NCBI GenBank assembly: GCA_017407205.1
Contig: JAFQXA010000019.1
Span: 41,210 to 105,209 of the forward strand
Length of the DNA stretch: 64,000 bases
Source of the DNA: Clostridia bacterium
Lineage (GTDB): Bacteria; Bacillota; Clostridia; Christensenellales; CAG-138
Direction: 5' to 3'
A program made the translations under genes and the position numbers. The notes under the pieces were generated by a model. The model had not been told where the DNA came from and ran no database searches. It saw nothing but the letters and a program-made list of their open reading frames with translations. Shown here piece after piece: positions 7,980 to 49,694 of the stretch (positions within the stretch are counted from its first letter, which is position 1; each line of letters begins with the position of its first letter).

Positions 7980-8816
7980 ATGGCAAGAATAGAGATAAAA
8001 AACTTAACATACTTTTACGCAGACGGTGAAACGCCTGTTTTAGACGATGTTTCGCTTAATGTAAATGAGGGCGAAATACTTGCAATAGTCGGGCATAACG
8101 GAAGCGGAAAGTCAACACTTGCAAAGCATATGAATGCTTTGCTCCTGCCGTATTCGGGAACTGTGAAGATTGACGGAATGGACACCTTGAACGAAGAGAA
8201 TACATTGAGTATCCGCCAAAAGGTAGGCATGGTATTTCAAAATCCCGATAACCAGATTGTCACAACGGTAGTCGAGGAAGATGTAGGCTTCGGTCCTGAA
8301 AATCTCGGCATTCCGACCGATGAAATATTGAGTCGTGTTTCGTCTTCTCTTGAGGCTGTGCGCATGAGCGAGTTTGCAAAAAATGCACCGCATATGCTGT
8401 CGGGCGGACAGAAGCAGAGAGTTGCAATAGCAGGTATCCTGGCAATGATGCCCGAGGTTCTGATATTGGATGAGGCTACCGCAATGCTTGATCCAAAAGG
8501 CAGGCAGGACGTTTTAAACATAGCGAAAAAACTTAATACAGAATCGAATATGACGGTTGTCATGATAACGCAGTACATGGAGGAAGCGGTTATTGCAGAC
8601 CGTGTAATAGTTATGCACGAGGGCAAAATTGTAAAGACAGGAACTCCCAAGACAGTGTTTGCGTATGACAGCGATATAGAAAAGTACTCGTTGGAGCTTC
8701 CGCACATGGCAAGGCTTCGTGACGGGCTTATAGAAAAAGGCATCGAGATTCCCCACGATGCACTCTTGATTGAGGAGCTTGAGAAAGCACTATGTCCATT
8801 GTTGCAGAAAAACTGA
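7980..8816 (+). CDS. ecfA1: ECF transporter energizing ATPase EcfA1
   Basis: Walker A GHNGSGKST, signature LSGGQKQR, Walker B ILDEAT. The track ORF starts at 7950, but MARIEIKNLTYFY is the usual EcfA N-terminus. Confidence 0.85.
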   Translation: MARIEIKNLTYFYADGETPVLDDVSLNVNEGEILAIVGHNGSGKSTLAKHMNALLLPYSGTVKIDGMDTLNEENTLSIRQKVGMVFQNPDNQIVTTVVEEDVGFGPENLGIPTDEILSRVSSSLEAVRMSEFAKNAPHMLSGGQKQRVAIAGILAMMPEVLILDEATAMLDPKGRQDVLNIAKKLNTESNMTVVMITQYMEEAVIADRVIVMHEGKIVKTGTPKTVFAYDSDIEKYSLELPHMARLRDGLIEKGIEIPHDALLIEELEKALCPLLQKN

Positions 8817-9649
8817 CACATATATACCTTGAAGGAAGTCCGAACGAGAGTGTGGCAATAGACAGCATCGACCTTAAAATCGAAGCCGGAGAGTTTTGGG
8901 GAATAATCGGCCACACAGGAAGCGGAAAGTCAACACTTGTCCAGCACCTGAACGCACTTATGCAGCCCACATCCGGCAGGATTTGCGTTGACGGTGATGA
9001 CCTCAAGGATAAGAAAAACAGGCGTGAGGCACGAAAAAAAGTAGGCCTTGTGTTTCAGTATCCCGAATATCAGCTTTTTGAAGAAACCGTATTAAAGGAT
9101 ATAGCATACGGCCCCATGAATATGGGGGAAAGTACAGAAAAAGCATATGAAATTGCACGTGAGGCAATGGTGAGCGTGGGGCTTTCCCCCGATGAAATCG
9201 AGGGAAGATCGCCGTTTGAGTTGTCGGGCGGACAAAAACGCCGTGTGGCGATTGCAGGCATAATAGCGATAAGGCCGCGTTATCTCGTGCTTGATGAGCC
9301 CATGGCGGGTCTTGACCCCAGGGGCAGAAAAGATATTTTGAACCTTTTAAAGACATTGAGAGAAAAAACGGGCTGTGCAGTTATAATGATATCCCACTCG
9401 ATGGACGACATTGCACAGTTTGCAGACCATGTGGCAGTTCTGAATGAAGGCAAGCTTTACAAGGCAGGAAGTGTTGCAGAGGTCTTTTCGGATATGGAAG
9501 CACTGCGCAGAACAGGACTTGACATACCGCAGGCTGCAATTTTGGCAGAGAGACTCAAAAAACAGGGCATAGAAATTGACCGTTCGATATATACGGTTGA
9601 ACAAATGCTTGACTTTATAACAGAAAAGACGGGCGGTGTATCAGGATGA
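8792..9649 (+). CDS. ecfA2: ECF transporter energizing ATPase EcfA2
   Basis: Walker A GHTGSGKST, LSGGQKRR, LVLDEP. It overlaps ecfA1 and ecfT as in canonical ecfAA'T operons. Confidence 0.85.
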   Translation: MSIVAEKLTHIYLEGSPNESVAIDSIDLKIEAGEFWGIIGHTGSGKSTLVQHLNALMQPTSGRICVDGDDLKDKKNRREARKKVGLVFQYPEYQLFEETVLKDIAYGPMNMGESTEKAYEIAREAMVSVGLSPDEIEGRSPFELSGGQKRRVAIAGIIAIRPRYLVLDEPMAGLDPRGRKDILNLLKTLREKTGCAVIMISHSMDDIAQFADHVAVLNEGKLYKAGSVAEVFSDMEALRRTGLDIPQAAILAERLKKQGIEIDRSIYTVEQMLDFITEKTGGVSG

Positions 9650-14653: not shown

Positions 14654-14676
14654 TAACTAAAACGCAAAAGACACAA

Positions 14677-14706
14677 AAAACGCACGGATTTTTCCGTGCG
14701 TTTTTG
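14677..14706 (+). terminator. intrinsic terminator of deoD
   Basis: CGCACGGA (14681-14688) pairs with TCCGTGCG (14693-14700), followed by TTTTT. Confidence 0.85.
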
Positions 14707-14720
14707 CTTGTATTGAAAAT
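14697..14720. repeat. left copy of 24-nt imperfect direct repeat bracketing the accessory islet
   Basis: TGCGTTTTTGCTTGTATTGAAAAT compared with TGCGTTTTTGCTTACCTTGAAAAT at 17952-17975: 21 of 24 identical, including an exact 13-mer and an exact 8-mer in register. Confidence 0.6.
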
Positions 14721-14844
14721 TTTAGTCTGCGTTTTCCGGTTTCTGCTTGCTGAGTGGAAATATTGTGCCTTTAATATGTTGATTCAAAGGGATAGAACCT
14801 CACACTTCGATTATATAATTGACAAGGATAAGTGGGTTGTATAA

Positions 14845-14858
14845 CACAATATATTGTG
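14845..14858. promoter_or_regulatory. perfect 14-bp palindrome CACAATATATTGTG, candidate XRE operator
   Basis: Perfect dyad read directly from the sequence. It lies about 100 nt upstream of the HTH gene and next to TTGACA/TATAAT-like boxes. Confidence 0.45.
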
Positions 14859-14897
14859 CTATAATAAGCAATATAGACCAAAAAATATCAAAACAAC

Positions 14898-14926
14898 TTG
14901 ACAATGTTATAATTAAACAGTATGAT
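14898..14926 (+). promoter_or_regulatory. sigma-A type promoter (TTGACA-17 nt-TATGAT) for the XRE/ImmA genes
   Basis: TTGACA at 14898-14903 and TATGAT at 14921-14926, 30 nt upstream of the ATG at 14957. Confidence 0.55.
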
Positions 14927-14956
14927 TATAAATAAAGATTAAAGGAGGTTTGATAT

Positions 14957-15301
14957 ATGTCGGTATTTAGTGAAAGGCTTACGGCATTGATGAAAGCAAA
15001 AGGATTTTCACAAAAAGAATTTGCAAAGCGAGCGAATGTTACTGAATCGGCAATGTCTTACTATGTAAAAGGAGTACGTACTCCGAGTGGAGAAGTACTC
15101 GCAAGAATTGCAAGGGCACTCGATACAACGGCCGATTATCTTTTAGGTAGCACGGATAGCATCGAAGTGCCTGAAGAACAAAAAGAACTTAAATATCTGC
15201 AAAGAAATCTCGGCAAATTGGATGATAAACAATTAAAAACAGCAGAAAAAATGTTGAAATTGATGTTTAATGACATTTTTGAGGATGATGACGAGGAGTG
15301 A
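14957..15301 (+). CDS. XRE-family helix-turn-helix transcriptional regulator (ImmR-like)
   Basis: LMKAKGFSQKEFAKRANVTESAMSYYVKGVRTPSGEVLARIARALDTTADYLLG is a classic HTH_3 domain. RBS AAAGGAGG. Confidence 0.85.
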   Translation: MSVFSERLTALMKAKGFSQKEFAKRANVTESAMSYYVKGVRTPSGEVLARIARALDTTADYLLGSTDSIEVPEEQKELKYLQRNLGKLDDKQLKTAEKMLKLMFNDIFEDDDEE

Positions 15302-15305
15302 ATTT

Positions 15306-15971
15306 GTGGCGAGTAGTGCAAAACCAAATTTTTCAGCAGCATATTCAAAAGCTAATGAGATTTTAGTAAAATCCCTTGTTATTTCCATGTTTCCTTTTTC
15401 TCCTATTGAACTTGTGAAAGAACAATCCGCCATAATGTGCCGTACTTACAAAAAGGCTCAAAAGTATGGCATTGACATTACTGCTTTTGGCAGTGATTCG
15501 GCTACTATTTTTGAATGTGACGGAAGGCAGATCATATTTTACGATGACAGCAAAGTGATGACTCATGTAAAATACTCAATTTTACACGAGCTGGGACATT
15601 CTTTAATCAATCACGATTTTTCTGTTAATGATAAAGAAACTTACGGTCAATACGAGGTTGAAACAAACTATTTTGCTGCTCAATTGCTTATGCCGGAACA
15701 GGTGCTGCGAGAGTTTGCGAAGCGCGGAGCCCGTATCACAAAAGAGTTTCTGATGGAACATTTTGAAGTGTCGGAAACGGCTGCAAAAAAACGCATTGAA
15801 ACGCTTGCGAAAACAACGGCTGAGTGGCGTTCCCGTCAAGAGAAAGAATTTGATGATATTATTCTCTGTAAGTTCTCTGCTTTTATCAATAGCACTTGTC
15901 CTTATAGCAATGACTACTTTGATTTTGAGGACGAATATGAACGTCAGCGTACAAGAGATTCTTGGTTTTAA
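15306..15971 (+). CDS. ImmA/IrrE-family zinc metallopeptidase
   Basis: HELGHSLINHD HExxH motif in the ImmA/IrrE context, directly downstream of the XRE gene. GTG at 15306 lies 7 nt after GAGGAG; the track ORF is 15270..15971. Confidence 0.75.
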   Translation: MASSAKPNFSAAYSKANEILVKSLVISMFPFSPIELVKEQSAIMCRTYKKAQKYGIDITAFGSDSATIFECDGRQIIFYDDSKVMTHVKYSILHELGHSLINHDFSVNDKETYGQYEVETNYFAAQLLMPEQVLREFAKRGARITKEFLMEHFEVSETAAKKRIETLAKTTAEWRSRQEKEFDDIILCKFSAFINSTCPYSNDYFDFEDEYERQRTRDSWF

Positions 15972-16000
15972 TTGCAAGCTTAAAATATAGATTGGAGGTG

Positions 16001-16075
16001 ATGTTTATGATTGTAGATAAAGATAAAGAAAAAAGCATTTCGCAAGTTGCGCCAACAACGAACGAAACGCTTTGA
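16001..16075 (+). CDS. possible 24-aa leader peptide (MFMIVDKDKEKSISQVAPTTNETL)
   Basis: ATG follows GGAGGTG, and the ORF is followed by a structured region. It is too short to support by composition. Confidence 0.2.
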   Translation: MFMIVDKDKEKSISQVAPTTNETL

Positions 16076-16192
16076 GTGTCGGATATGCTATGATATCCAA
16101 CCAGTGGACAGGTTCATTGTAGCATATCCTTCGATGGTTGTAAATTTAAAAATTTATGCTGTCTATCTAAAAGATTAAGGAGGATATAAAAA

Positions 16193-16885
16193 ATGACAGA
16201 TAAAAAAACAAATAATTTATTCTATGACGGTTTTAACTCGAAACTGATCGAAACCGCATTTTTCGAGGGCTTTCTTGAAATTCCTATCTTGGAAGCTCCG
16301 AAAGAAATTATTATACCTTCGGTTGCTGTACCGTTTTCAAAAAGAAAGGAGCTTACTGACCCTTCGAAAGAAATGCTCGTTTTCTACGAGAAAGATCCCG
16401 TGTTTAGAGATTTCGTAAGTATACCGCAGAATTACATTGATGAACTGAAAAATGTCAAAATAATCACTACGCCTGATTGCTCTCTTTATCGAGACATGCC
16501 ACTTTGGTCGCAAATAGCGAACATTGGTGTGAGTCGCTCTGTAGGATATTATTTGCAACAGCAAGGAAAATATGTGATTCCCAATGTTCGTTGGGGAGAT
16601 GAGCAGACATACACAAAAGGTCTGCTGGATTATCCACCTGCATTTTCGGGTATACCGAAAAACAGTATTGTTTCAATCGGTACTTATGGATGCAGTCAAA
16701 AGAAAGAGGACAAATATTTTCTTGAAGCAGGGCTTGAAGTCATGCTTCAAGAATTAGCACCGCAGGTCGTTGTAGTGTACGGTTCGTATAACCCTAAAAT
16801 CTTCGGCAAATACGAGCGTTATACGCAGTTCCATCATTTGCCTGACTGGACTACATATGCCCACAATGGGAAGAGGGTGGTCTGA
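16193..16885 (+). CDS. DUF4417 domain protein (function unknown)
   Basis: The pattern FYEKDPVFRDF..KIITTPDCSLYRDMPLWSQIANIGVSRSVGYYLQQQGKYVIPNVRWGDE..SIVSIGTYG matches my recollection of the DUF4417 family. RBS AAGGAGG. Confidence 0.55.
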   Translation: MTDKKTNNLFYDGFNSKLIETAFFEGFLEIPILEAPKEIIIPSVAVPFSKRKELTDPSKEMLVFYEKDPVFRDFVSIPQNYIDELKNVKIITTPDCSLYRDMPLWSQIANIGVSRSVGYYLQQQGKYVIPNVRWGDEQTYTKGLLDYPPAFSGIPKNSIVSIGTYGCSQKKEDKYFLEAGLEVMLQELAPQVVVVYGSYNPKIFGKYERYTQFHHLPDWTTYAHNGKRVV

Positions 16886-16886
16886 T

Positions 16887-17378
16887 ATGGGAACGAGCAA
16901 AAGCGGACGTTATCTTAATACCAGGGGCTCCGGCAGAAGTGTCAGCGATTTTGCTTTGGTACATTCAAGCGAAGGTGCATTCACCCGTAGTCAAACCCGT
17001 GTCAACGGGGAAGTGGTTATTAAACTTCGGCTTAATAATGGTGGGCACAGCCAGAAAGGGATGGATTTGCTCGATAAATACGGCATTAACTATAATATCG
17101 TTAAAACCTATCCAAATGGCGTTCGTATTGGCAATATACCTAACCATATGCAACGCTCAAAGCGTAGTGGGACAAGTCAAGCGTGGTTCCCTAAATCGTG
17201 GACAGAAAAAGACATTCGACGAGCAGGAGAACACGTTTCCGGTCTTAAAGGCAATCGCCGTATCGCAGACGGCAAAAAAATATATGGTGTCTACAAAGGT
17301 GTGCGAGTTGGCGTTATTCGTACTAATGGAAAAATCGCCACAGTTTTCCCGGACTCTAATCAAAATAAACGGAGGTGA
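16887..17378 (+). CDS. stand-alone EndoU-like / polymorphic-toxin-type nuclease domain protein (putative toxin)
   Basis: The motifs NNGGHSQKG .. SQAWFPKSWTEKDIRRAG .. GVRVGVIRTNGKIATVFPD resemble the bacterial EndoU toxin signature (GGH .. K[ST]xFPxxW[ST]xxxI .. I.T.[FY]P). No N-terminal trafficking domain is present. The ATG at 16887 is 1 nt after the DUF4417 stop; the track ORF starts at 16857. Confidence 0.45.
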   Translation: MGTSKSGRYLNTRGSGRSVSDFALVHSSEGAFTRSQTRVNGEVVIKLRLNNGGHSQKGMDLLDKYGINYNIVKTYPNGVRIGNIPNHMQRSKRSGTSQAWFPKSWTEKDIRRAGEHVSGLKGNRRIADGKKIYGVYKGVRVGVIRTNGKIATVFPDSNQNKRR

Positions 17379-17383
17379 TATTT

Positions 17384-17713
17384 ATGCAGTTTGTTGAGTT
17401 TCGTGAAATAATCAAAAAACGTACTTTTATCGATGATGAGTGGTATACTGAAATTGAAAAATGTTGGAAAGAAATGATAGAACTTTTTTCGTTGGATATA
17501 GATAAGACCATTCGTTTCCTTGATGTATGTACCGCTGACGAGTTCTCTTGGCTAAGTGAAATTATGGAGGATATAGCTAAAAGAACTCACAACAAGGAGT
17601 TTATTAGTGCATTGAAAAAAACGGCAGATAAATATCCCGAAGAAACACAACGGTACAATATTGTTGATTTTATAGAGTCAGCAGAATGTATTGTTGTTGA
17701 CGAGCAGGAATAG
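17384..17713 (+). CDS. small acidic protein, candidate cognate immunity protein
   Basis: ATG lies 6 nt after GGAGGTG, and that RBS overlaps the toxin stop codon. The protein is 109 aa and acidic, in the canonical immunity position. No motif was recognised. Confidence 0.4.
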   Translation: MQFVEFREIIKKRTFIDDEWYTEIEKCWKEMIELFSLDIDKTIRFLDVCTADEFSWLSEIMEDIAKRTHNKEFISALKKTADKYPEETQRYNIVDFIESAECIVVDEQE

Positions 17714-17715
17714 TG

Positions 17716-17922
17716 ATGAAATTTAACACGCTAAAAGAGGCCATTCAGTTTCGCATAATAGAAAGTGAAGAGAATTATTGGGTTGACTATAATGAGTACG
17801 TGAAAAGCATAGAAGAAATTGGATATGCTAAAATCGTATTGCTGAATAAAATTGTCGCAGTTTTCCCAGACTTTAATCAAAAACGTACATTTATCGATGC
17901 TGAAAGTAGAATAGAAGAATAA
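17716..17922 (+). CDS. 68-aa hypothetical protein with a chimeric C-terminus (toxin tail + immunity head scar)
   Basis: The start overlaps the upstream stop (TAGTGATG). Its last 21 codons repeat 17331-17365 joined to 17410-17438. Confidence 0.35.
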   Translation: MKFNTLKEAIQFRIIESEENYWVDYNEYVKSIEEIGYAKIVLLNKIVAVFPDFNQKRTFIDAESRIEE

Positions 17923-17926
17923 ATCA

Positions 17927-17961
17927 AACGCAGCAAGAATGAAATCTTTGCTGCGTTTTTG
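17927..17961. terminator. intrinsic terminator at right end of islet (hairpin also faces the convergent VanW gene)
   Basis: AACGCAGCAA (17928-17937) pairs with TTGCTGCGTT (17948-17957), followed by TTTT. Confidence 0.8.
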
Positions 17962-17975
17962 CTTACCTTGAAAAT
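17952..17975. repeat. right copy of 24-nt imperfect direct repeat bracketing the accessory islet
   Basis: See 14697-14720. This copy ends 1 nt before the stop codon of the convergent gene 17976..19625. Confidence 0.6.
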
Positions 17976-19625
17976 CTATTCTTCTGCCTTAATCTCAAAT
18001 TCGGGGAGCAGGGGTTCGCCTGCATAGCCTGCCCATACATAGTAGCGTGCAGGGTGCATACGGTAGGTCGTGGTTGTGATAAACTTGCGATCCACTTCCT
18101 TGCCGTCCTTAAGATATGATTTGTATGTTTTGAAAACATAGCCCTTCTTTGCAGCGTTCTTTACCTGCCAGTAGGGAGCAGTTAAGCTGCTCTTTTGTAT
18201 GTATTCCGTTTCGGTGGGTGCAATGGGATCCTGCTCGTCTGAAATGAGATTTATTTCATCGAATGAATCACCGAAGGGCTCACCGTAAAGCTCGCACCAA
18301 ACCTCCTTGTTTTTCTTGTCAATCCATGTGAATACATAGACGGGGGAGGAGGTGTTATTTGTCCAGAGGAAGTCTATTCTTCCGCTGTCTATCGTTGCAT
18401 CAAGACCGCCCTTTACATAGCCGAGCTTGCTTGAATGGCCTTGGCGGTAATCCACCTGATAATCAGCTTTCAAAACCGCCTGGTAAATTGTACTTGAAAT
18501 CTGGCATACGCCGCCGCCAGGCTGATCCTCATTGGCTGCACCGCCGTCTATAACAGCAGGGGCAAGCTGCCAGCCGCTTGCAAGTGTGCGGTAACCGAGT
18601 ATTGTGTTTGCTGAGAACTGCTCACCCGGCTGTAAAACTGTGCCGTATACCAAGCCTGTTGCTTTTGTCATGTTGTGAACACGAGTTGATCTTCCGTAAT
18701 TACCGCTTGCATATGATGTTGAAACAGCAACACGCAAAACGAGCTTTGCTTTTATGTCTGCAACCGTTACGGAAGCAGGAGTTACCTTTGCAGGCAATTC
18801 AAAGTATGAAAAATCATTGTTTGCAATGCGTTCTTTGAGCTTTGAAATAAATTCGTCACGGTTGATTTCAATACCGTCTTTTTCTTCGATAAAGTCAAAG
18901 CGTAAATCTCTAAGGTCGGTTATCGAGCCGTCCTCGGGCAAGCCGATGTTGACTGTATCATATGCGTTTATGCCCTTTGTTTCGCTCATGGGGAGTTCTT
19001 TTACTGCAAATGAAGCGTTTGTGGGCGTTGCACCAAGCTCTTTTGAAAGATTGTCAAGGTATGTGTTTACCGTTTCTTCGTCAAGCGTGAGAGCAAGCGT
19101 GAATGTACGGCCGTTTATTTTTACGTCTTCGATTTCAGCCTCCATCTGGCGAAGCTTGCCTGTTCTGCCAAGAAGCATTGCTTCGTTTAAAACTTCGTCA
19201 ATATTTGCAACTATGCCAAGGTCAGCGCCCGATGCAACAATGTTGCCGTTCGTTGAGGTTATCGTGAGCATTATATCCTTTTCCATAGCGTTTGTGACGT
19301 TCTTGAGCGCATCCTTTGCCTCGTCAACCTTCATACCGCCTATTGCAACACCGTTTACCTTGATTCCCTCATGGAATATTCCGGAATTGATGATTTCCTG
19401 ACGCTTTTCTTCCTGCTTTTGTGTGACAAAGAGCAAACCGCAGTAAACAAGACTTAATACAGCAACCAAAGAAACAAGTGTTATGAGGAGCTTCTTTGAA
19501 CCGCTTGAAGCCTGCTTAACTTCCTTTTTAGGGGTTGCTTTTGCTGTTGATTTGTTGTTTGTCTTTGCGTTTGCTTTGCCCGTTGACTTTTTGCTTGTTT
19601 GAGCTTTCTTGTTCTTGCTTGCCAT
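17976..19625 (-). CDS. VanW-family protein with N-terminal membrane anchor
   Basis: Lys-rich N-terminus plus a TM helix. The VanW core reads YGTVLQPGEQFS..GGGVCQISSTIYQAVLKADY..GLDATI. Confidence 0.7.
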   Translation of the reverse strand: MASKNKKAQTSKKSTGKANAKTNNKSTAKATPKKEVKQASSGSKKLLITLVSLVAVLSLVYCGLLFVTQKQEEKRQEIINSGIFHEGIKVNGVAIGGMKVDEAKDALKNVTNAMEKDIMLTITSTNGNIVASGADLGIVANIDEVLNEAMLLGRTGKLRQMEAEIEDVKINGRTFTLALTLDEETVNTYLDNLSKELGATPTNASFAVKELPMSETKGINAYDTVNIGLPEDGSITDLRDLRFDFIEEKDGIEINRDEFISKLKERIANNDFSYFELPAKVTPASVTVADIKAKLVLRVAVSTSYASGNYGRSTRVHNMTKATGLVYGTVLQPGEQFSANTILGYRTLASGWQLAPAVIDGGAANEDQPGGGVCQISSTIYQAVLKADYQVDYRQGHSSKLGYVKGGLDATIDSGRIDFLWTNNTSSPVYVFTWIDKKNKEVWCELYGEPFGDSFDEINLISDEQDPIAPTETEYIQKSSLTAPYWQVKNAAKKGYVFKTYKSYLKDGKEVDRKFITTTTYRMHPARYYVWAGYAGEPLLPEFEIKAEE

Positions 19626-44977: not shown

Positions 44978-46816
44978 CTATTTTTGGCTTACAATGTCGA
45001 TGCCTACAGCCTGTGACATAACAGCGGTTGCATCTGCCACGCTGATTGTTCCGTCGTGATTTGCATCAGCAGCATCGGTATATATGCCGTTTATTGTGTG
45101 TATGCCGACTATGTGGTTCATGATTGTTGAAGCATCTGCAACATCGAGAATACCGTTGCCGTTAAGGTCACCGTATATCTTTATTGTGTAGTGCTTGGGG
45201 GTTGATGAACCTTGGGTGTAAAGATACGCACTGCAACCTGTGCCGACATAGCTTCCCCTTGTGCCTATAATATTTACCGAAGTAAGGTTCGGTATTGATT
45301 CAAGTATAAGCTGCTCAACGCGTGAAGGCGTAGTGTTTGAGGGAATATTAGATATCGTTTTTTCTGCTTCGTTTATGATGCAGGCGGAATTGATATCTTT
45401 AAGTGTAACACCTATATACCTAAGCGAAGCCGAAGCATCGGACGAGGGGGTAAACACACGGTTTTTAGGCTTGATTACTATTGCACCTCCACCGTAAATG
45501 GTGGCAGAAGCGGATGAGGTGTAAAGAATGGGATTTACTGAATTGAACTTATCCGATGTGCCAAAGCCGTAAATACCGTCAAAATCATTCGGGTCGTTTG
45601 CAATAAGCGCAATTTTAAACGCAAGCATTATTTCAGAAAGCGTTTTGCCATCAAGTGCAGTACCCTCCAGTGCTGCCATTATAGCTTTTTCATCCGTGGG
45701 ATTTGCATCGTTGGCGAAAACATCAAGCAGTTTTTTGAAGGACTTATAGGTTCCTGTCTGCGCCTTTAAATACTGACCGAAAAGGCAGTTCATGCCGTAA
45801 CAGGAAATGTCGGACTCGTTCCATGCGTAAGCGGAGTAACCGCTTGCATAGGAAGCTCCGTATGTGTTGAGCTGGTCTATTCTGCTCTCAAGTGTTGAAT
45901 TGGGATAAACAGCTTCCTGGGCTGCCATTGAGCAGGCTTCATCAAGCCATGTGCTTGCCCATGCCGTGCTTCCCGATTGCGTATTTGTCCAATACTTTGA
46001 GAAGCTGATAAGGTGCTGCATTTCGTGCGCTATTGTGTGGAATACCGAGTCAAGCGACGATGAGCCGTTGAATGAGATGGAGGGGTATGTGTCCAGATGT
46101 ATCATGGCGGACATATTGCCGTATGTGGGAACAAGGTCACCGCTCCAGAAAAAGCCAGTGTGATAGCTGTTTGTTGTTGTGCCGAACCCATCCTGTAAAT
46201 CATATACGAGAATATTGAGCTTGCCCATGCCCTTGGGATCATAGAAAGTGCCGAAGTTTTCAGTCATTGCAGGTAAAATTTTGTTGTCATATTCGTCTGC
46301 AATTTCCTGTGCCTGTTCAAGCGTTATTGCATATTCTTCTGAGGGAATGTACCAAACATAGCAGTTTTTGCCTGTAAGAGCGAGAGTAAACGTCTTTGAA
46401 ACAAGCGTGTTGCTTCCAATGGTGGGAAATACGTTAAAAACGCGCTCCTGACCGGTTGCATAAGTTTTGATTGAGAAAAGCTGATTCAAAAGTGTGCTCT
46501 TTGCAGGATAAACCGTTTCGGGAGCTTTGAAGTGAACGCTTTTCATTTCATCTGTATTTTCATCCTTTTCAGAAACGGATGAGGATACGAGCTTGCCGCT
46601 CAATGAGCCAGTTGCCATTGAAGATGAAGCCACAGTTGAAGGATTGTAAATTACAACATAATCACCCTCATAACCGCCCGACGGATTCGTGTCAAGTCCC
46701 AAAATACCGTCATTTACGGGTACGGCATGGGAAGTAGTGAACGGAACGAGAGTTAATGACAAAAGCATTATTACGGAAAGAACGAACGCGGAAAGAGCTT
46801 TGATGCGTTTTTGCAT
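44978..46816 (-). CDS. secreted putative zinc metallopeptidase (HExxH) with C-terminal dockerin
   Basis: Signal peptide, HTIAHEMQHLISF, and a C-terminal YGDLNGNGILDVADASTIMNHIVG / ADANHDGTISVADATAVMSQAVG dockerin. Confidence 0.6.
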   Translation of the reverse strand: MQKRIKALSAFVLSVIMLLSLTLVPFTTSHAVPVNDGILGLDTNPSGGYEGDYVVIYNPSTVASSSMATGSLSGKLVSSSVSEKDENTDEMKSVHFKAPETVYPAKSTLLNQLFSIKTYATGQERVFNVFPTIGSNTLVSKTFTLALTGKNCYVWYIPSEEYAITLEQAQEIADEYDNKILPAMTENFGTFYDPKGMGKLNILVYDLQDGFGTTTNSYHTGFFWSGDLVPTYGNMSAMIHLDTYPSISFNGSSSLDSVFHTIAHEMQHLISFSKYWTNTQSGSTAWASTWLDEACSMAAQEAVYPNSTLESRIDQLNTYGASYASGYSAYAWNESDISCYGMNCLFGQYLKAQTGTYKSFKKLLDVFANDANPTDEKAIMAALEGTALDGKTLSEIMLAFKIALIANDPNDFDGIYGFGTSDKFNSVNPILYTSSASATIYGGGAIVIKPKNRVFTPSSDASASLRYIGVTLKDINSACIINEAEKTISNIPSNTTPSRVEQLILESIPNLTSVNIIGTRGSYVGTGCSAYLYTQGSSTPKHYTIKIYGDLNGNGILDVADASTIMNHIVGIHTINGIYTDAADANHDGTISVADATAVMSQAVGIDIVSQK

Positions 46817-46915
46817 GGTGAATACCTCCGAAATAATTATTTAAACAGTTAAAGTAATGTTTCTATAAAGTAATGTAATTATATCATTATAAAAAAATCA
46901 TGTCTACTGTAAACA

Positions 46916-47776
46916 CTATATAAGTTGTGATACAAAGCAAGGCAAAACGCCCACAATAAGACAGTAAACAATACAGCCGAAGTTTTCAACACGCAAAAGA
47001 CGGTGCCTTGTGTTTGAAAAGAAAATGCAGGTCATGCACGTTAAAAAAGCAAGTGCCGACAAAACATAGCAAAAAGGTGTTGAATTTAAAAATGTAAGTG
47101 CGATTACAAAGAATACAAAAGACAAAGCCGTTGACGCATATAAAAGTATGTGGCGTATATTCTTGAAATGCGAGGTTTGGGGGAGAGTACGCCTTAAAGC
47201 TATATCAAAAGCATAAAACGCAAAAAGTCTTGAAAGCATATAGCAAAGTGTGGGAAAAATATCGGGAACCTTTGATGCAGCAAAGGCTTGTGTGATGACG
47301 ATAAAAGCATCTGCAAAAAAGAGGTTTGCAGCTCTTAAAAATATAAAAAGCTCGGTACGCTTCAAGATATAACCCTTCATAAAAAAGGAAGAGGAGTTCA
47401 AAATACAAAAACCGAGAACAAATACAAGCGATATAATAAGATAGTATGAGAGAAAGAAAGTTGCAATCACGCAAAGAGCCGTGAAAGCAAAGCCTGCCAT
47501 CTTGAGTTCGGTCAAAGTAATAAGACCGCTCGGAACAGGACGATCCTTGTGATGAGCGGAGTCGTACTTGAAATCCCTGTGTTCATCGCCGATACGGGTC
47601 AGGGCAAACATGGTGAAAGTAACGAGTGAAGCACAAAGAAAGCTCCAAACCGAAAACGGAATGTCAAAGGGCGTGGTTGAATAAAGTGCCATGCCGAGAG
47701 TTATAAGAAAAGCAGTCGGCAAAAGGTACAGTATAGGAAAACGCTCTGATTGATATGTGGAAAAACGATTATCCAT
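46916..47776 (-). CDS. UbiA-family prenyltransferase-like membrane protein
   Basis: Polytopic membrane protein with GDEHRDFKYDSAHHKDRPVPSG, an Asp-rich motif plus the RP.PSG loop. The start was trimmed to MDNRF. Confidence 0.5.
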   Translation of the reverse strand: MDNRFSTYQSERFPILYLLPTAFLITLGMALYSTTPFDIPFSVWSFLCASLVTFTMFALTRIGDEHRDFKYDSAHHKDRPVPSGLITLTELKMAGFAFTALCVIATFFLSYYLIISLVFVLGFCILNSSSFFMKGYILKRTELFIFLRAANLFFADAFIVITQAFAASKVPDIFPTLCYMLSRLFAFYAFDIALRRTLPQTSHFKNIRHILLYASTALSFVFFVIALTFLNSTPFCYVLSALAFLTCMTCIFFSNTRHRLLRVENFGCIVYCLIVGVLPCFVSQLI

Positions 47777-47913
47777 GAAGGGCCCTTTTTGAAAAATAAA
47801 TGTCAAAATCAGCTATAATTATATTGCAAATACAAAATAAAGTAAAGTTGAATACAAAAAAGATAAAAAGATGTATTGCAAAATCAAAAAAAGTGTGATA
47901 CTATATTTCCCAC

Positions 47914-48000
47914 GCCGAAGTGATGGAATTGGCAGACGTGACGGACTCAAAATCCGTTGGTAGCGATACCGTGTGGGTTCGAGTCCCACCTTCGGCACCA
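47914..48000 (+). tRNA. tRNA-Leu (anticodon CAA), CCA encoded
   Basis: Acceptor GCCGAAG/CTTCGGC, anticodon arm ACGGA-CTCAAAA-TCCGT, long variable arm, T arm GTGGG-TTCGAGT-CCCAC, and a terminal ACCA. Confidence 0.9.
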
Positions 48001-48003
48001 AAA

Positions 48004-48036
48004 ACAAAAGCACCCGAATGGGTGCTTTTGTTTTTG
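48004..48036 (+). terminator. intrinsic terminator after tRNA-Leu
   Basis: AAAAGCACCC-GAAT-GGGTGCTTTT hairpin followed by a T-run. Confidence 0.8.
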
Positions 48037-48160
48037 GTATAAAAGGGACTCGAAGGGCGGAAAAGAAAACGCTCCGGTGTGAGCGTTTTCCCGCCCCGGG
48101 GAGCGAAAGGAGCGAGCGCGGGCAGTGCGGAGCACAAGTAAGCCGCGGATTGAGCGGAGA

Positions 48161-48216
48161 AGTCCCACCTTCGGCACCAACAACAAAAGCACCCGAGAGG
48201 GTGCTTTTTTGTTGGT
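48161..48216 (+). repeat. duplicate of tRNA-Leu 3' end (20 nt exact) plus its terminator
   Basis: AGTCCCACCTTCGGCACCAA is identical to 47982-48001. The following hairpin AAAAGCACCC-GAGA-GGGTGCTTTT matches 48006-48029. About 50 of 56 positions are shared overall. Confidence 0.8.
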
Positions 48217-48219
48217 GCA

Positions 48220-48289
48220 GTGAAATAAATCCCTGTCGGGATTTGTGAAATACGCTATGCGTGTGAAATATGGCTTCGCCATGTGAAAT
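48220..48289 (+). repeat. four direct GTGAAAT heptamers
   Basis: GTGAAAT at 48220, 48245, 48263 and 48283, mostly in a tGTGAAATa context. Confidence 0.8.
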
Positions 48290-48316
48290 GCCTGCGGGCG
48301 TGAGAGGATTTATTTT

Positions 48317-48395
48317 ATTTCACTTGATGCTTGCATCAAATTTCACAATGACAATAAGTCATTATTTCACATTTTGCGTGAGCAAAATATTTCAC
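48317..48395 (-). repeat. four inverted GTGAAAT heptamers (ATTTCAC on top strand)
   Basis: ATTTCAC at 48317, 48340, 48364 and 48389, spaced 23-25 bp. A TTGATGC-tt-GCATCAA palindrome lies at 48324-48339. Confidence 0.8.
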
Positions 48396-48448
48396 TTTAA
48401 CTCCTTTTGCAAACATGATATAACTATGGTAAGAGAGGTGGTGCTTGT

Positions 48449-48796
48449 ATGGCTGAATCTAAACTTCGTGAGCTCTCGACAGACTTTGCTGTTAAGATTA
48501 TAAAATTGTGTGAAGGTATAAAGGGACATCACTCACTTGTAAACCAGTTAGAGCGCTCGGCAACGTCGATTGGTGCAAATATCCATGAAGCAAACTATGC
48601 ACACGGTAAGCCTGATTTTATTGCTAAATTACAAATTGCATTGAAAGAATGCTATGAAACAGAATACTGGCTGGAATTATTTGTAAAATCCGATATCTTA
48701 AACAGAGAAACCGCAGGTAATCTTTATAACCAATGTGGTACTATTCGTCGCGTTCTGATTGCTTCCATCAATACTGCAAAAGAAAATACCAAATAA
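48449..48796 (+). CDS. four-helix-bundle protein (23S rRNA intervening-sequence protein / Avd-like family)
   Basis: LSTDFAVKIIKLCE..LVNQLERSATSIGANIHEANYAHGKPDFIAKLQIALKECYETEYWLEL is the family signature. Confidence 0.8.
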   Translation: MAESKLRELSTDFAVKIIKLCEGIKGHHSLVNQLERSATSIGANIHEANYAHGKPDFIAKLQIALKECYETEYWLELFVKSDILNRETAGNLYNQCGTIRRVLIASINTAKENTK

Positions 48797-48834
48797 TCAC
48801 ATACTGACAAATATGCTCCATGCTACTTCCCTCA

Positions 48835-48863
48835 TTGCACATACCAACATTTTAGTGTATAAT
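48835..48863 (+). promoter_or_regulatory. sigma-A promoter (TTGCAC-17 nt-TGtTATAAT extended -10) for the FMN riboswitch/ribU
   Basis: TTGCAC at 48835-48840 and TATAAT at 48858-48863, with TG at 48856-48857. Confidence 0.65.
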
Positions 48864-48865
48864 AC

Positions 48866-48990
48866 CTCATATCTTCGGGGCAGGGTGAAAATCCCTACTG
48901 GCGGTTAAAGTCCGCGAGCGAGCGTATGAGCTTGCTGATTCGGTGAAAGTCCGAAACCAACAGTAAAGTCTGGATGGAAGAAGATTGAAA
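48866..48990 (+). promoter_or_regulatory. FMN riboswitch (RFN element)
   Basis: CTTCGGGGCAGGGTGAAAATCCCTACTGGCGGT..AGTCCGCGAGC..GATTCGGTGAAAGTCCGAAACCAACAGT..AGTCTGGATGGAAGAAG matches the RFN consensus. Confidence 0.9.
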
Positions 48991-49085
48991 CGGTATATTT
49001 TTATTGAGGATTATTGCTTCTTTAGTACCTTTCTTTTTTCTTGCTTTGTCTTGAGATGAAAAAGTAGATACTAAGGAGTTTTTTT

Positions 49086-49694
49086 ATGGAAAAAAGTAAA
49101 ATGTTCAATGCAAGAAAATTGACAATGACAGCAATGTTCGGTGCAATTTCATTCATCTTGATGTTCTTTAAACTCAATATTCCGTTTTTCTCACCTGTTG
49201 CGGATTTTGACTTGTCGGCATTTCCCGAGCTTTTGGGCGGATTTATGCTCGGACCGATTTGTGCACTTGTGATTATTGTGATAAAGCTTGCTTTGAAGCT
49301 TGCAATACTCGGCACATCAACAATGTTCACGGGTGAATTACAAAACTTGCTTTTGAGCATAGCTTATGTATTGCCTGCGGTGCTTTACTACCGAAAGAAC
49401 AGGACAAAAAAGGGTGCTGTAATCGGCGTAGTAATCGGAAGCGTGGCAAGCATCATAATCGCCGTGTTTACGAATATTTATTTGATTTTTCCTTTTTATA
49501 TGGAAGTTTTTGGCATGGATTGGGAAAAAATAATCGGAATGTTTTCCGCAGCAAATTCTTACATAAAAGATGTTCCCACACTTATCGCCTTCTCAATAGT
49601 TCCGTTTAATCTCATTTCAAGAACGGTAACATCCCTGTTGACAATATTGCTTTATAAAAAGATAAGCGTCCCAATGAAAAAATGGATGGCGTAG
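49086..49694 (+). CDS. ribU: riboflavin ECF transporter S component RibU
   Basis: Six-TM S-component-like protein (KLTMTAMFGAISFILMFF..) directly behind the FMN riboswitch. Confidence 0.8.
   Translation: MEKSKMFNARKLTMTAMFGAISFILMFFKLNIPFFSPVADFDLSAFPELLGGFMLGPICALVIIVIKLALKLAILGTSTMFTGELQNLLLSIAYVLPAVLYYRKNRTKKGAVIGVVIGSVASIIIAVFTNIYLIFPFYMEVFGMDWEKIIGMFSAANSYIKDVPTLIAFSIVPFNLISRTVTSLLTILLYKKISVPMKKWMA

Follow-up and report, generated by a model that had tools for sequence, protein, structure and literature searches.

A predicted toxin-immunity islet inserted with target duplication in the terminator between deoD and a VanW gene of a Clostridia bacterium

Introduction

How does a small toxin cassette that encodes no recombinase come to lie between two housekeeping genes? 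The question is raised by a 3.3-kb islet (positions 14697–17975) in a 64-kb stretch of DNA from a Clostridia bacterium (contig JAFQXA010000019.1, positions 41,210 to 105,209; referred to as the window, to which all coordinates refer unless another contig is named). An initial annotation of the window described the islet as an AT-rich accessory segment between deoD and a VanW gene, bracketed by imperfect direct repeats. Here, comparison with related contigs demonstrates that a 3,255-bp segment is a lineage-specific insertion in the bidirectional terminator between the convergent deoD and VanW genes, and that 24–28 bp of the target, from the 3′ arm of the terminator of deoD up to and including the VanW stop codon, were duplicated along with it. 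The explanation that we regard as probable for the locus as a whole combines insertion at a terminator, with target duplication and without a dedicated attachment (att) site, and a damage- or phage-induced toxin/immunity operon as the inserted DNA.

Results

The islet occupies a site that is empty in other lineages of the species

Three near-identical versions of the VanW protein occur in public assemblies, on contigs L007, L008 and L009 (L-numbers are labels for the related contigs compared with the window). In each, the deoD stop codon is followed by 67 nt containing one copy of the repeat and then by the VanW stop codon, exactly the ancestral junction that the initial annotation had predicted (deoD, terminator, VanW stop, with a single copy). 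These contigs are 98.1–98.5% identical to the window over 4–15 kb and 1.9–2.5% apart from each other, and therefore represent other lineages of the same species. The site is also empty in a sister or outgroup species (L002; VanW 76% and deoD 92% identical), in which VanW directly follows deoD. The exact DUF4417 protein of the islet is encoded by 13 contigs, all of which carry it at this locus and are 99.97–100% identical to the window where they overlap it.

The composition of the islet sets it apart from its surroundings. Its interior (14721–17951) contains 37.9% guanine plus cytosine (GC) versus 43.2% for the rest of the window; for windows of the same size the standard deviation is 1.7 points and only 0.4% are as low as the islet. 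GC at third codon positions is 0.30–0.40 in the islet genes scored in frame (the M78 peptidase gene was left out) versus 0.44–0.52 in the flanking genes, and the EndoU gene itself has 45% GC. The AT-richness that had been estimated from hand counts (28–38% GC inside versus 45–50% outside) is thus real, although the contrast is smaller than those counts suggested. Combined, the empty sites, the outgroup, the near-identical carriers and the composition indicate a single gain of the islet, by one near-clonal lineage.

Other small differences separate these relatives. A relative with 72% VanW identity has an RloB/AAA_21 (OLD/Abi-like) gene set beside spoIIID (L069, 2810–4740) that is missing from the lineage of the window (L010, around 18258–19327), and carries different cargo downstream of VanW (an XRE gene, a Band_7/zinc-ribbon gene and others), so several small accessory insertions distinguish them.

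A second low-GC stretch of the window (46500–49500; 38.6–39.7%), comparable to the islet, surrounds the only tRNA gene, tRNA-Leu(CAA) at 47914–48000, and a gene for a 23S rRNA-intervening-sequence protein. The last 19 nt of this tRNA and the terminator hairpin that follows (53 nt, 47982–48034) recur with 91% identity at 48161–48213, about 126 nt apart. An element formerly inserted at the tRNA may have left this repeat behind, or it may be a further small duplication of a terminator; the window has no integrase gene near the tRNA.

The direct repeats are two copies of the terminator target

The 24-mers TGCGTTTTTGCTTGTATTGAAAAT (14697–14720) and TGCGTTTTTGCTTACCTTGAAAAT (17952–17975), which had been proposed to bracket the islet, are identical at 21 of 24 positions. 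When up to three mismatches are allowed, these are the only matches in the window, and 0 of 100 shuffles gave any. The exact 13-mer within them occurs solely in the two copies (an additional copy with one mismatch is present at 46804), and a local alignment of the 500-nt flanks on the two sides of the islet scored at z = 6.2. With no match in any shuffle, two copies in 64 kb and a single copy at the empty sites, both chance and a generic similarity between terminators are ruled out, and the concern that the 24-mer might be common to many terminators does not hold in the window.

As had been observed, each copy begins inside the 3′ arm of a terminator hairpin (Table 1): the left copy in that of deoD, and the right copy in a different hairpin at the islet end, of which the 5′ arm and loop are islet DNA and the last ~7 nt of the 3′ arm belong to the repeat. 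The right copy also adjoins the VanW gene, as described, ending one base before the complement of its stop codon, CTA (17976–17978). Judged against the empty allele of L008, the duplicated target extends to 14724 (TTTTA, with the VanW stop complement included), so that it measures 24 nt as the 24-mer and 27–28 nt with this extension; the net insertion is 3,255 bp. The islet terminator and the 3′ arm of the deoD terminator have 9–13 nt in common, TGCGTTTTT(GCTT).

The three mismatches between the copies are adjacent, reading GTA on the left and ACC on the right, and both alleles segregate among the empty sites (GTA in L008; ACC in L007 and L009). For this reason the copies do not resemble a fresh duplication of one template: either the incoming DNA brought one of them along, or recombination with another lineage has since converted one.

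In a separate polymorphism, the loop of the deoD hairpin (14689–14692) reads TTTT in the window and L009 and AAAA in L007 and L008, with identical stems; the loop has thus flipped between lineages.

Table 1 Features of the islet and its junctions, in window coordinates
Feature	Position	Strand	Description
deoD intrinsic terminator hairpin	14676–14705	+	13-bp stem, 4-nt loop; resident target; single copy in empty-site contigs L007–L009
Left copy of duplicated target	14697–14724		24-mer plus TTTA; GTA allele
Third, degenerate target copy	14731–14764		TTTTCCG, three-position gap, GTTTCTGCTTGCTGAGTGGAAATATT; gapped local alignment score of 16, which none of 1000 shuffles exceeded
Upstream promoter region	14819–14865	+	TTGTAT-17-TGcTATAAT, as read from the sequence; operator-like palindrome in spacer
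Perfect 14-bp palindrome, CACAATATATTGTG	14845–14858		Found at the same position, with symmetric changes, in L031 and L030
Second promoter	14898–14926	+	TTGACA-17-TATGAT (11/12)
XRE-family helix-turn-helix repressor, CapH/ImmR-like, 114 aa	14957–15301	+	Pfam HTH_3 3e-13; PADLOC capH 2.1e-15
M78 Zn-metallopeptidase, CapP/ImmA/IrrE-like, 228 aa	15285–15971	+	Pfam Peptidase_M78 1.4e-16; PADLOC capP 1.1e-15
Structured leader 5′ of DUF4417	16033–16129	+	Hairpin 1, 16033–16072; hairpin 2, 16081–16129
DUF4417 protein, 230 aa	16193–16885	+	Pfam 1.2e-41
Predicted stand-alone EndoU-family RNase toxin, 163 aa	16887–17378	+	Pfam EndoU_bacteria 5.9e-15
Putative cognate immunity protein, 109 aa	17384–17713	+	Directly after toxin; phrog_19054 6e-8
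Patchwork open reading frame, 68 aa	17716–17922	+	Internally deleted second immunity gene (130-aa type), then scraps of toxin C-terminus and immunity N-terminus
Islet-end terminator hairpin	17926–17958	+	−16.1 kcal/mol, z = −3.6
Right copy of duplicated target	17952–17978		ACC allele; runs into VanW stop-codon complement

The same cassette recurs at unrelated loci with unrelated repeats

Among the contexts that could be read, the DUF4417-EndoU-immunity core is present at six further, unrelated chromosomal loci in Clostridia, making seven with the window (Table 2); the islet is, for example, 75% identical in nucleotide sequence to Lachnospiraceae copies at another locus. The 500 nt upstream and 500 nt downstream of each cassette were compared in the same way as for the window. 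Significant flanking direct repeats are present at four of the seven loci, and at three of these four they lie at a terminator hairpin. In L020 and L021, a complete hairpin stands on either side of a Fic-DUF4417-EndoU-immunity cassette (copies 96% identical); in L031, a complete hairpin is duplicated (97%) in front of a convergent YbbR gene; and in L032, the repeat is the 3′ end of spoIVB (72%). A weak 16-nt repeat flanking the cassette in L026 and L030 was rejected as not significant.

Table 2 Chromosomal contexts of the DUF4417-EndoU-immunity cassette
Locus	Flanking genes	Head of cassette	Flanking repeat	z
Window	deoD / VanW	XRE-M78	24–28 nt	6.2
L017–22	MmeI / infC or Schlafen	Fic	48 nt	25–31
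L023–25		XRE + 161-aa protein	none significant	about 0
L026–30	upstream of cytosine/purine permease	XRE-M78	none significant	0.4
L031	2-oxoacid dehydrogenase / YbbR	XRE-M78	32 nt	18
L032	spoIVB / spo0A	XRE-M78	107 nt	18
L070	def / cupin	Fic	none significant	0.6

The repeats have no sequence in common between loci, differ in length, and are copies of local host sequence; the termini of the cassette are not conserved between loci either. In none of the seven chromosomal contexts did gene calling place a recombinase next to the cassette; insertion sequence (IS) transposases are present in the wider island of L022. Because the repeats are local host copies of unrelated sequence and differing length, they point to a variable target duplication rather than to a site-specific att, and four unrelated cores of four lengths, with no recombinase encoded nearby, make the action of one site-specific recombinase unlikely. 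Nor is the cassette a decayed remnant, since the same operon of regulators, DUF4417, EndoU and immunity protein is found intact at unrelated loci of other Clostridia. Of the initial proposal of a minimal or decayed mobile cassette, or of cargo mobilized in trans, the lack of a recombinase in the islet therefore stands, while the decayed state and the att-like role of the 24-mer are not supported. Searches of the cassette DNA against plasmid and phage collections returned no match.

The L032 contig also shows a more complex arrangement (8804–9563), in which the spoIVB fragment downstream of the cassette is followed by two tandem 98-nt repeats (85%) and then by spo0A.

The islet is a single operon headed by a predicted repressor-protease pair

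All six islet genes are co-oriented, and together they form one operon of regulators, leader, DUF4417, EndoU, immunity gene and decayed scraps. The XRE repressor, the M78/ImmA protease, the 14-bp palindrome and the toxin cassette named in the initial annotation were all recovered, and scans of the six open reading frames (ORFs) with Pfam, PHROG and PADLOC found no integrase, transposase or replication domain. PADLOC 2.0 matched the regulators alone, with no match for DUF4417 or EndoU.

The XRE gene adjoins the M78 gene at the head of the effector operon, and the translated M78 peptidase, whose gene is also called in L005, contains an HELGH motif of the HEXXH type, the arrangement seen in CapH/CapP pairs; the capP profile aligned over positions 42–153 of 242 only, which is the protease part. 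Conservation of the palindrome in two other cassettes, with symmetric variants, is as expected of the operator of the repressor. Homology to the other cassettes in blastn begins at the second promoter.

The 220-nt spacer between the regulators and DUF4417 contains a structured leader. An RNAalifold consensus of six cassettes has 91% of cells paired and seven pairs with compensatory changes, a result equalled by 0 of 500 shuffles. Rfam gave nothing above its gathering score for the islet (best 27.6 bits versus a threshold of 114), and the leader has no Rfam match. The leader is also present upstream of DUF4417 in L020, L023, L026, L031 and L032, has G-U pairs on the sense strand only, and is kept even where Fic replaces XRE and M78; a short ORF with a common RICYD motif overlaps it in the window and L031.

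The EndoU gene starts 1 nt after the DUF4417 stop codon, and its product scores 56.2 bits against a Pfam cut-off of 25.3 and is 69–85% identical in other cassettes; a sequence search against the Protein Data Bank (PDB) returned nothing useful for it and no solved homologue. The toxin-immunity order is conserved in all cassettes. At each of the seven loci a small ORF follows the toxin; in the six cassettes that were aligned these ORFs are homologous, the 109-aa ORF of the islet being 38–45% identical to the post-toxin ORF of each related cassette. The composition of the 68-aa patchwork ORF was read from the internal repeats D2 and D4 and from blastp matches to residues 2–25 and 103–121 of the L020/L021 immunity protein.

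DUF4417 is the constant component of the family

DUF4417 is 76–83% identical in amino acid sequence across the six aligned cassettes and 74% (P0171) for the seventh locus, L070; homologues at 63–84% identity are numerous in Clostridia assemblies. We found no characterization of the family in the searchable literature, and a sequence search against PDB returned nothing useful. A search of the AlphaFold2 model (mean predicted local distance difference test, pLDDT, 83.5) with Foldseek against PDB gave no match at E < 1e-3, the best being TIM-barrel enzymes at a template-modelling (TM) score of about 0.4, and the search against BFVD returned phage DUF4417 relatives together with weak queuine tRNA-ribosyltransferase-like matches. 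We treat this last resemblance of the model as a lead and not as an assignment.

No close DUF4417 relatives were found in viral contigs. The family is common in phages, where it stands among DNA-metabolism genes, and ParB-like nuclease or methylase domains are frequent fusion partners of the phage homologues (10.1101/2025.10.10.680097). Two further arrangements were encountered. A second module in L022 (13512–17034) has DUF4417 with 133-, 93- and 97-aa proteins in place of EndoU and immunity, with XRE and M78 nearby, and the phage-like scaffold MT835627 (L068, 2475–5617) has DUF4417 with 132- and 198-aa proteins, again with XRE and M78 nearby and, in this case, adjoining a resolvase gene. Because the small downstream proteins of these two modules are unrelated, DUF4417 behaves as a constant partner with exchangeable effectors.

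Discussion

Probable mode of arrival: insertion with target duplication

The base-pair-resolved junctions and the recurrence of the signature at other loci suggest that the cassette moves without a dedicated att site, in a manner that matches a known phenomenon. Nobusato et al. reportedly described, in 2000, the insertion of restriction-modification (R-M) gene complexes with long target duplication. Furuta, Abe and Kobayashi (2010; PMC2853133) presented an 'insertion with long and variable target duplication' of R-M genes, with cases in which 46-bp repeats overlap gene 3′ ends and the inserts are without mobility genes. The islet shares with these cases a small (<20 kb) selfish or defence block, present in some strains and absent from others, with a single copy of the repeat at the empty site (here in L007–L009); flanking direct repeats that copy this sequence; repeats that overlap the 3′ end of a flanking gene and vary in length from case to case; and an insert (3,255 bp) that has no mobility gene and a GC content below that of the genome. 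It differs in its cargo, a repressor/protease-controlled RNase toxin and immunity operon, in its targets, for the most part hairpins of intrinsic terminators that separate convergent genes, and in its hosts, gut Clostridia.

Mechanistically, host recombination or repair would most likely join the incoming DNA at two staggered positions around the hairpin-forming target, and the TGCGTTTTT(GCTT) match between the islet and deoD terminators may have provided the microhomology at which the right-hand joint was made. The repeats, once in place, would permit loss, circularization, or a Campbell-type return into the homologous site in relatives, so that later spread or loss would use either the repeats or the flanking homology.

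Several observations weigh against this explanation. Three of the seven chromosomal contexts (L023–25, L026–30 and L070) have no significant flanking repeat, and target duplication at the other loci is judged from position alone. The window repeat, at 24–28 bp, falls below the >30-bp threshold of the authors (PMC2853133), a length that is exceeded in L020 (48 nt), L031 (32 nt) and L032 (107 nt). The GTA/ACC difference is not explained by fresh duplication of one template unless later conversion is invoked, and would fit an attP × attB exchange, and the islet contains, directly within its left boundary, a degenerate third target copy (14731–14764) of unexplained origin. Within the species, the islet is present at one locus and in one near-clonal lineage only, its mobility being deduced by comparison. 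Finally, the defence role is by association only, as no PADLOC model matches DUF4417 or EndoU.

Other mechanistic candidates were considered and dropped. Simple cruciform resolution as the origin of the duplicated hairpins is excluded because the loops of both copies are in direct, not inverted, orientation (L020, L031). A dif/Xer origin, as in integrative mobile elements exploiting Xer (IMEX), does not fit repeats that differ between loci, and we take the window repeat to be unlike Firmicute dif. An IS or transposon is not supported as there is no transposase, no long inverted repeat that pairs the islet ends and a variable duplication length. For an integron gene cassette, the hairpins are perfect-stem intrinsic terminators, those of L020 and L031 being copies of the host's own terminator, which counts against attC, and GTTTTTG does not fit GTTRRRY.

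Alternative origins of the islet and its repeats

If the repeats were instead the attL and attR of a non-autonomous element, similar to a cis-mobilizable element (CIME) or a satellite, the recombinase would be supplied from elsewhere in the genome or by a helper phage or integrative and conjugative element (ICE). The att core considered is TGCGTTTTTGCTT. Imperfect copies that each carry a different natural allele are what would be expected if half of each came from an element-borne attP, and the att possibility keeps some probability because of this GTA/ACC pattern. The exact 13-nt core could house the crossover and the target, like many att sites, shows dyad symmetry; the related XRE-M78-DUF4417 cassette of the phage-like scaffold, moreover, adjoins its resolvase gene. 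CIMEs derive from ICEs, keep the att sites of the ICE and depend on its integrase, and the islet resembles them in being short, having imperfect direct repeats and lacking a recombinase of its own. In the islet family, however, every locus has its own repeat, and neither a related ICE nor an integrase was observed: unrelated repeats of 24 to 107 nt are not what a single recombinase would act on, the cassette termini are not conserved, and the only mobility genes near any of the seven contexts are the IS transposases of the wider L022 island. The only tRNA of the window has no integrase near it. The 24-mer core is absent from the viral contigs searched (0 matches), and its 34 matches in metagenome contigs, none of them a donor attP, are attributed to chance because they have no other similarity to the locus. 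We consider mobilization at att sites in trans to be unlikely.

About equally doubtful is an arrival of the islet, repeats included, through homologous recombination of the flanking core genes with those of another strain or species. The gap between deoD and VanW would then be a variable hotspot, and the repeats would be older and of other origin. The species is certainly recombining, as the empty-site contigs are 1.9–2.5% apart and their single-nucleotide polymorphisms (SNPs) form a mosaic near the site, the relative with 72% VanW identity holds its other cargo downstream of VanW, and the downstream repeat copy of L032 is a foreign-looking 72% spoIVB fragment, as expected if flanking DNA travels with the cassette. 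Such import accounts for spread, though not for the origin of a duplicated target. Divergence beside the islet, examined as a possible trace of imported flanks, does not stand out (17 differences within the ~260 nt before the junction versus peaks of 25–29 per 300 nt elsewhere), and the islet was not found at this locus in any other lineage or species.

It is considerably less probable that the cassette inserts itself, with DUF4417 as a DNA-joining enzyme of a new kind, whose attack on the two sides of a terminator hairpin would lead to its duplication. DUF4417 is the constant and most conserved component (76–83% identity), the duplicated target is a terminator hairpin in three cases out of four, with an exact hairpin-for-hairpin copy in two of them, the phage homologues have the nuclease and methylase fusions mentioned above (10.1101/2025.10.10.680097), and the fold has no solved relative. 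Yet the cassettes offer no conserved terminal sequences or inverted repeats to recognize, the duplication length is not fixed, three loci have no repeats, the weak structural neighbours are TIM-barrel or queuine tRNA-ribosyltransferase-like proteins and not nucleases or integrases, and DUF4417 is common in phages among DNA-metabolism genes. We therefore think it very improbable that the DUF4417-EndoU cassettes constitute an unrecognized class of small self-inserting elements that target and duplicate terminator hairpins between convergent genes; if they did, DUF4417 would supply a new DNA-breaking and -joining or target-marking activity, and retention would be ensured by the toxin-immunity pair.

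Least probable of all is an ancestral islet that the 'empty' contigs lost by recombination between the repeats, since, even though GTA and ACC both occur among the empty sites as if deletions had resolved to the left or right of the triplet, the outgroup L002 has VanW directly after deoD, the islet is compositionally foreign with relatives at unrelated loci in other families, the three empty contigs come from diverse lineages while the carriers are near-clonal, and the L008 allele would require a crossover with only ~2 nt of homology to the right.

A likely damage- or phage-induced toxin/immunity module

For the operon delivered by the terminator insertion, a function as a damage- or phage-induced toxin/immunity module is likely, by analogy with characterized switches. 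In CapH/CapP, single-stranded DNA (ssDNA) from DNA damage activates the peptidase, the repressor is cleaved and immune operons are de-repressed (10.1101/2022.04.27.489752; PMC13228613). As in the CapH/CapP, ImmR/ImmA and DdrO/IrrE switches, an XRE repressor followed by an M78 protein with HEXXH heads a toxic effector operon, and, as in CapH/CapP, a palindromic operator lies in the promoter and both proteins match the PADLOC capH and capP models, the latter over the protease part of the profile, so that a C-terminal sensor (in CapP a GAF-like, ssDNA-sensing domain with a cysteine-switch loop) is only putative here. In contrast to CapH/CapP, the effector comprises DUF4417, EndoU and immunity rather than CBASS or DISARM, the regulators are co-oriented and probably co-transcribed with the effectors, and in some members of the family a Fic protein replaces the pair. 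By this analogy, the repressor would keep the operon off until DNA damage or phage-derived ssDNA activated the M78 protease and the repressor was cleaved. The EndoU RNase would then be expressed and, if ahead of the immunity protein, would arrest or kill the cell (abortive infection or addiction).

The effector itself recalls another group of systems. EndoU_bacteria toxin domains (PF14436) of polymorphic toxin and contact-dependent inhibition (CDI) systems, with downstream immunity genes and orphan modules, were reportedly described by Zhang, Iyer and Aravind in 2011–2012. The islet likewise has an EndoU-fold RNase domain followed by a small, fast-evolving immunity gene, with decayed orphan fragments downstream; it differs in that the toxin is a 163-aa stand-alone cytoplasmic protein without a secretion or delivery domain. 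Because it is under a presumably damage-responsive repressor and has no delivery domain, the module resembles a type II toxin-antitoxin or abortive infection system rather than an interbacterial weapon.

Implications

The arrival of defence or toxin cassettes that have no mobility genes between housekeeping genes is poorly understood, and this locus provides a clean case, with occupied and empty alleles in one species, junctions resolved to the base pair, and a signature that is repeated in other genera. It extends long target duplication, so far documented for R-M genes, to a toxin-immunity operon, and points to terminator hairpins as preferred entry points. The comparison further defines a widespread, uncatalogued module of gut Clostridia, a candidate stress- or phage-induced suicide system, and gives the uncharacterized DUF4417 family a consistent genetic partner.

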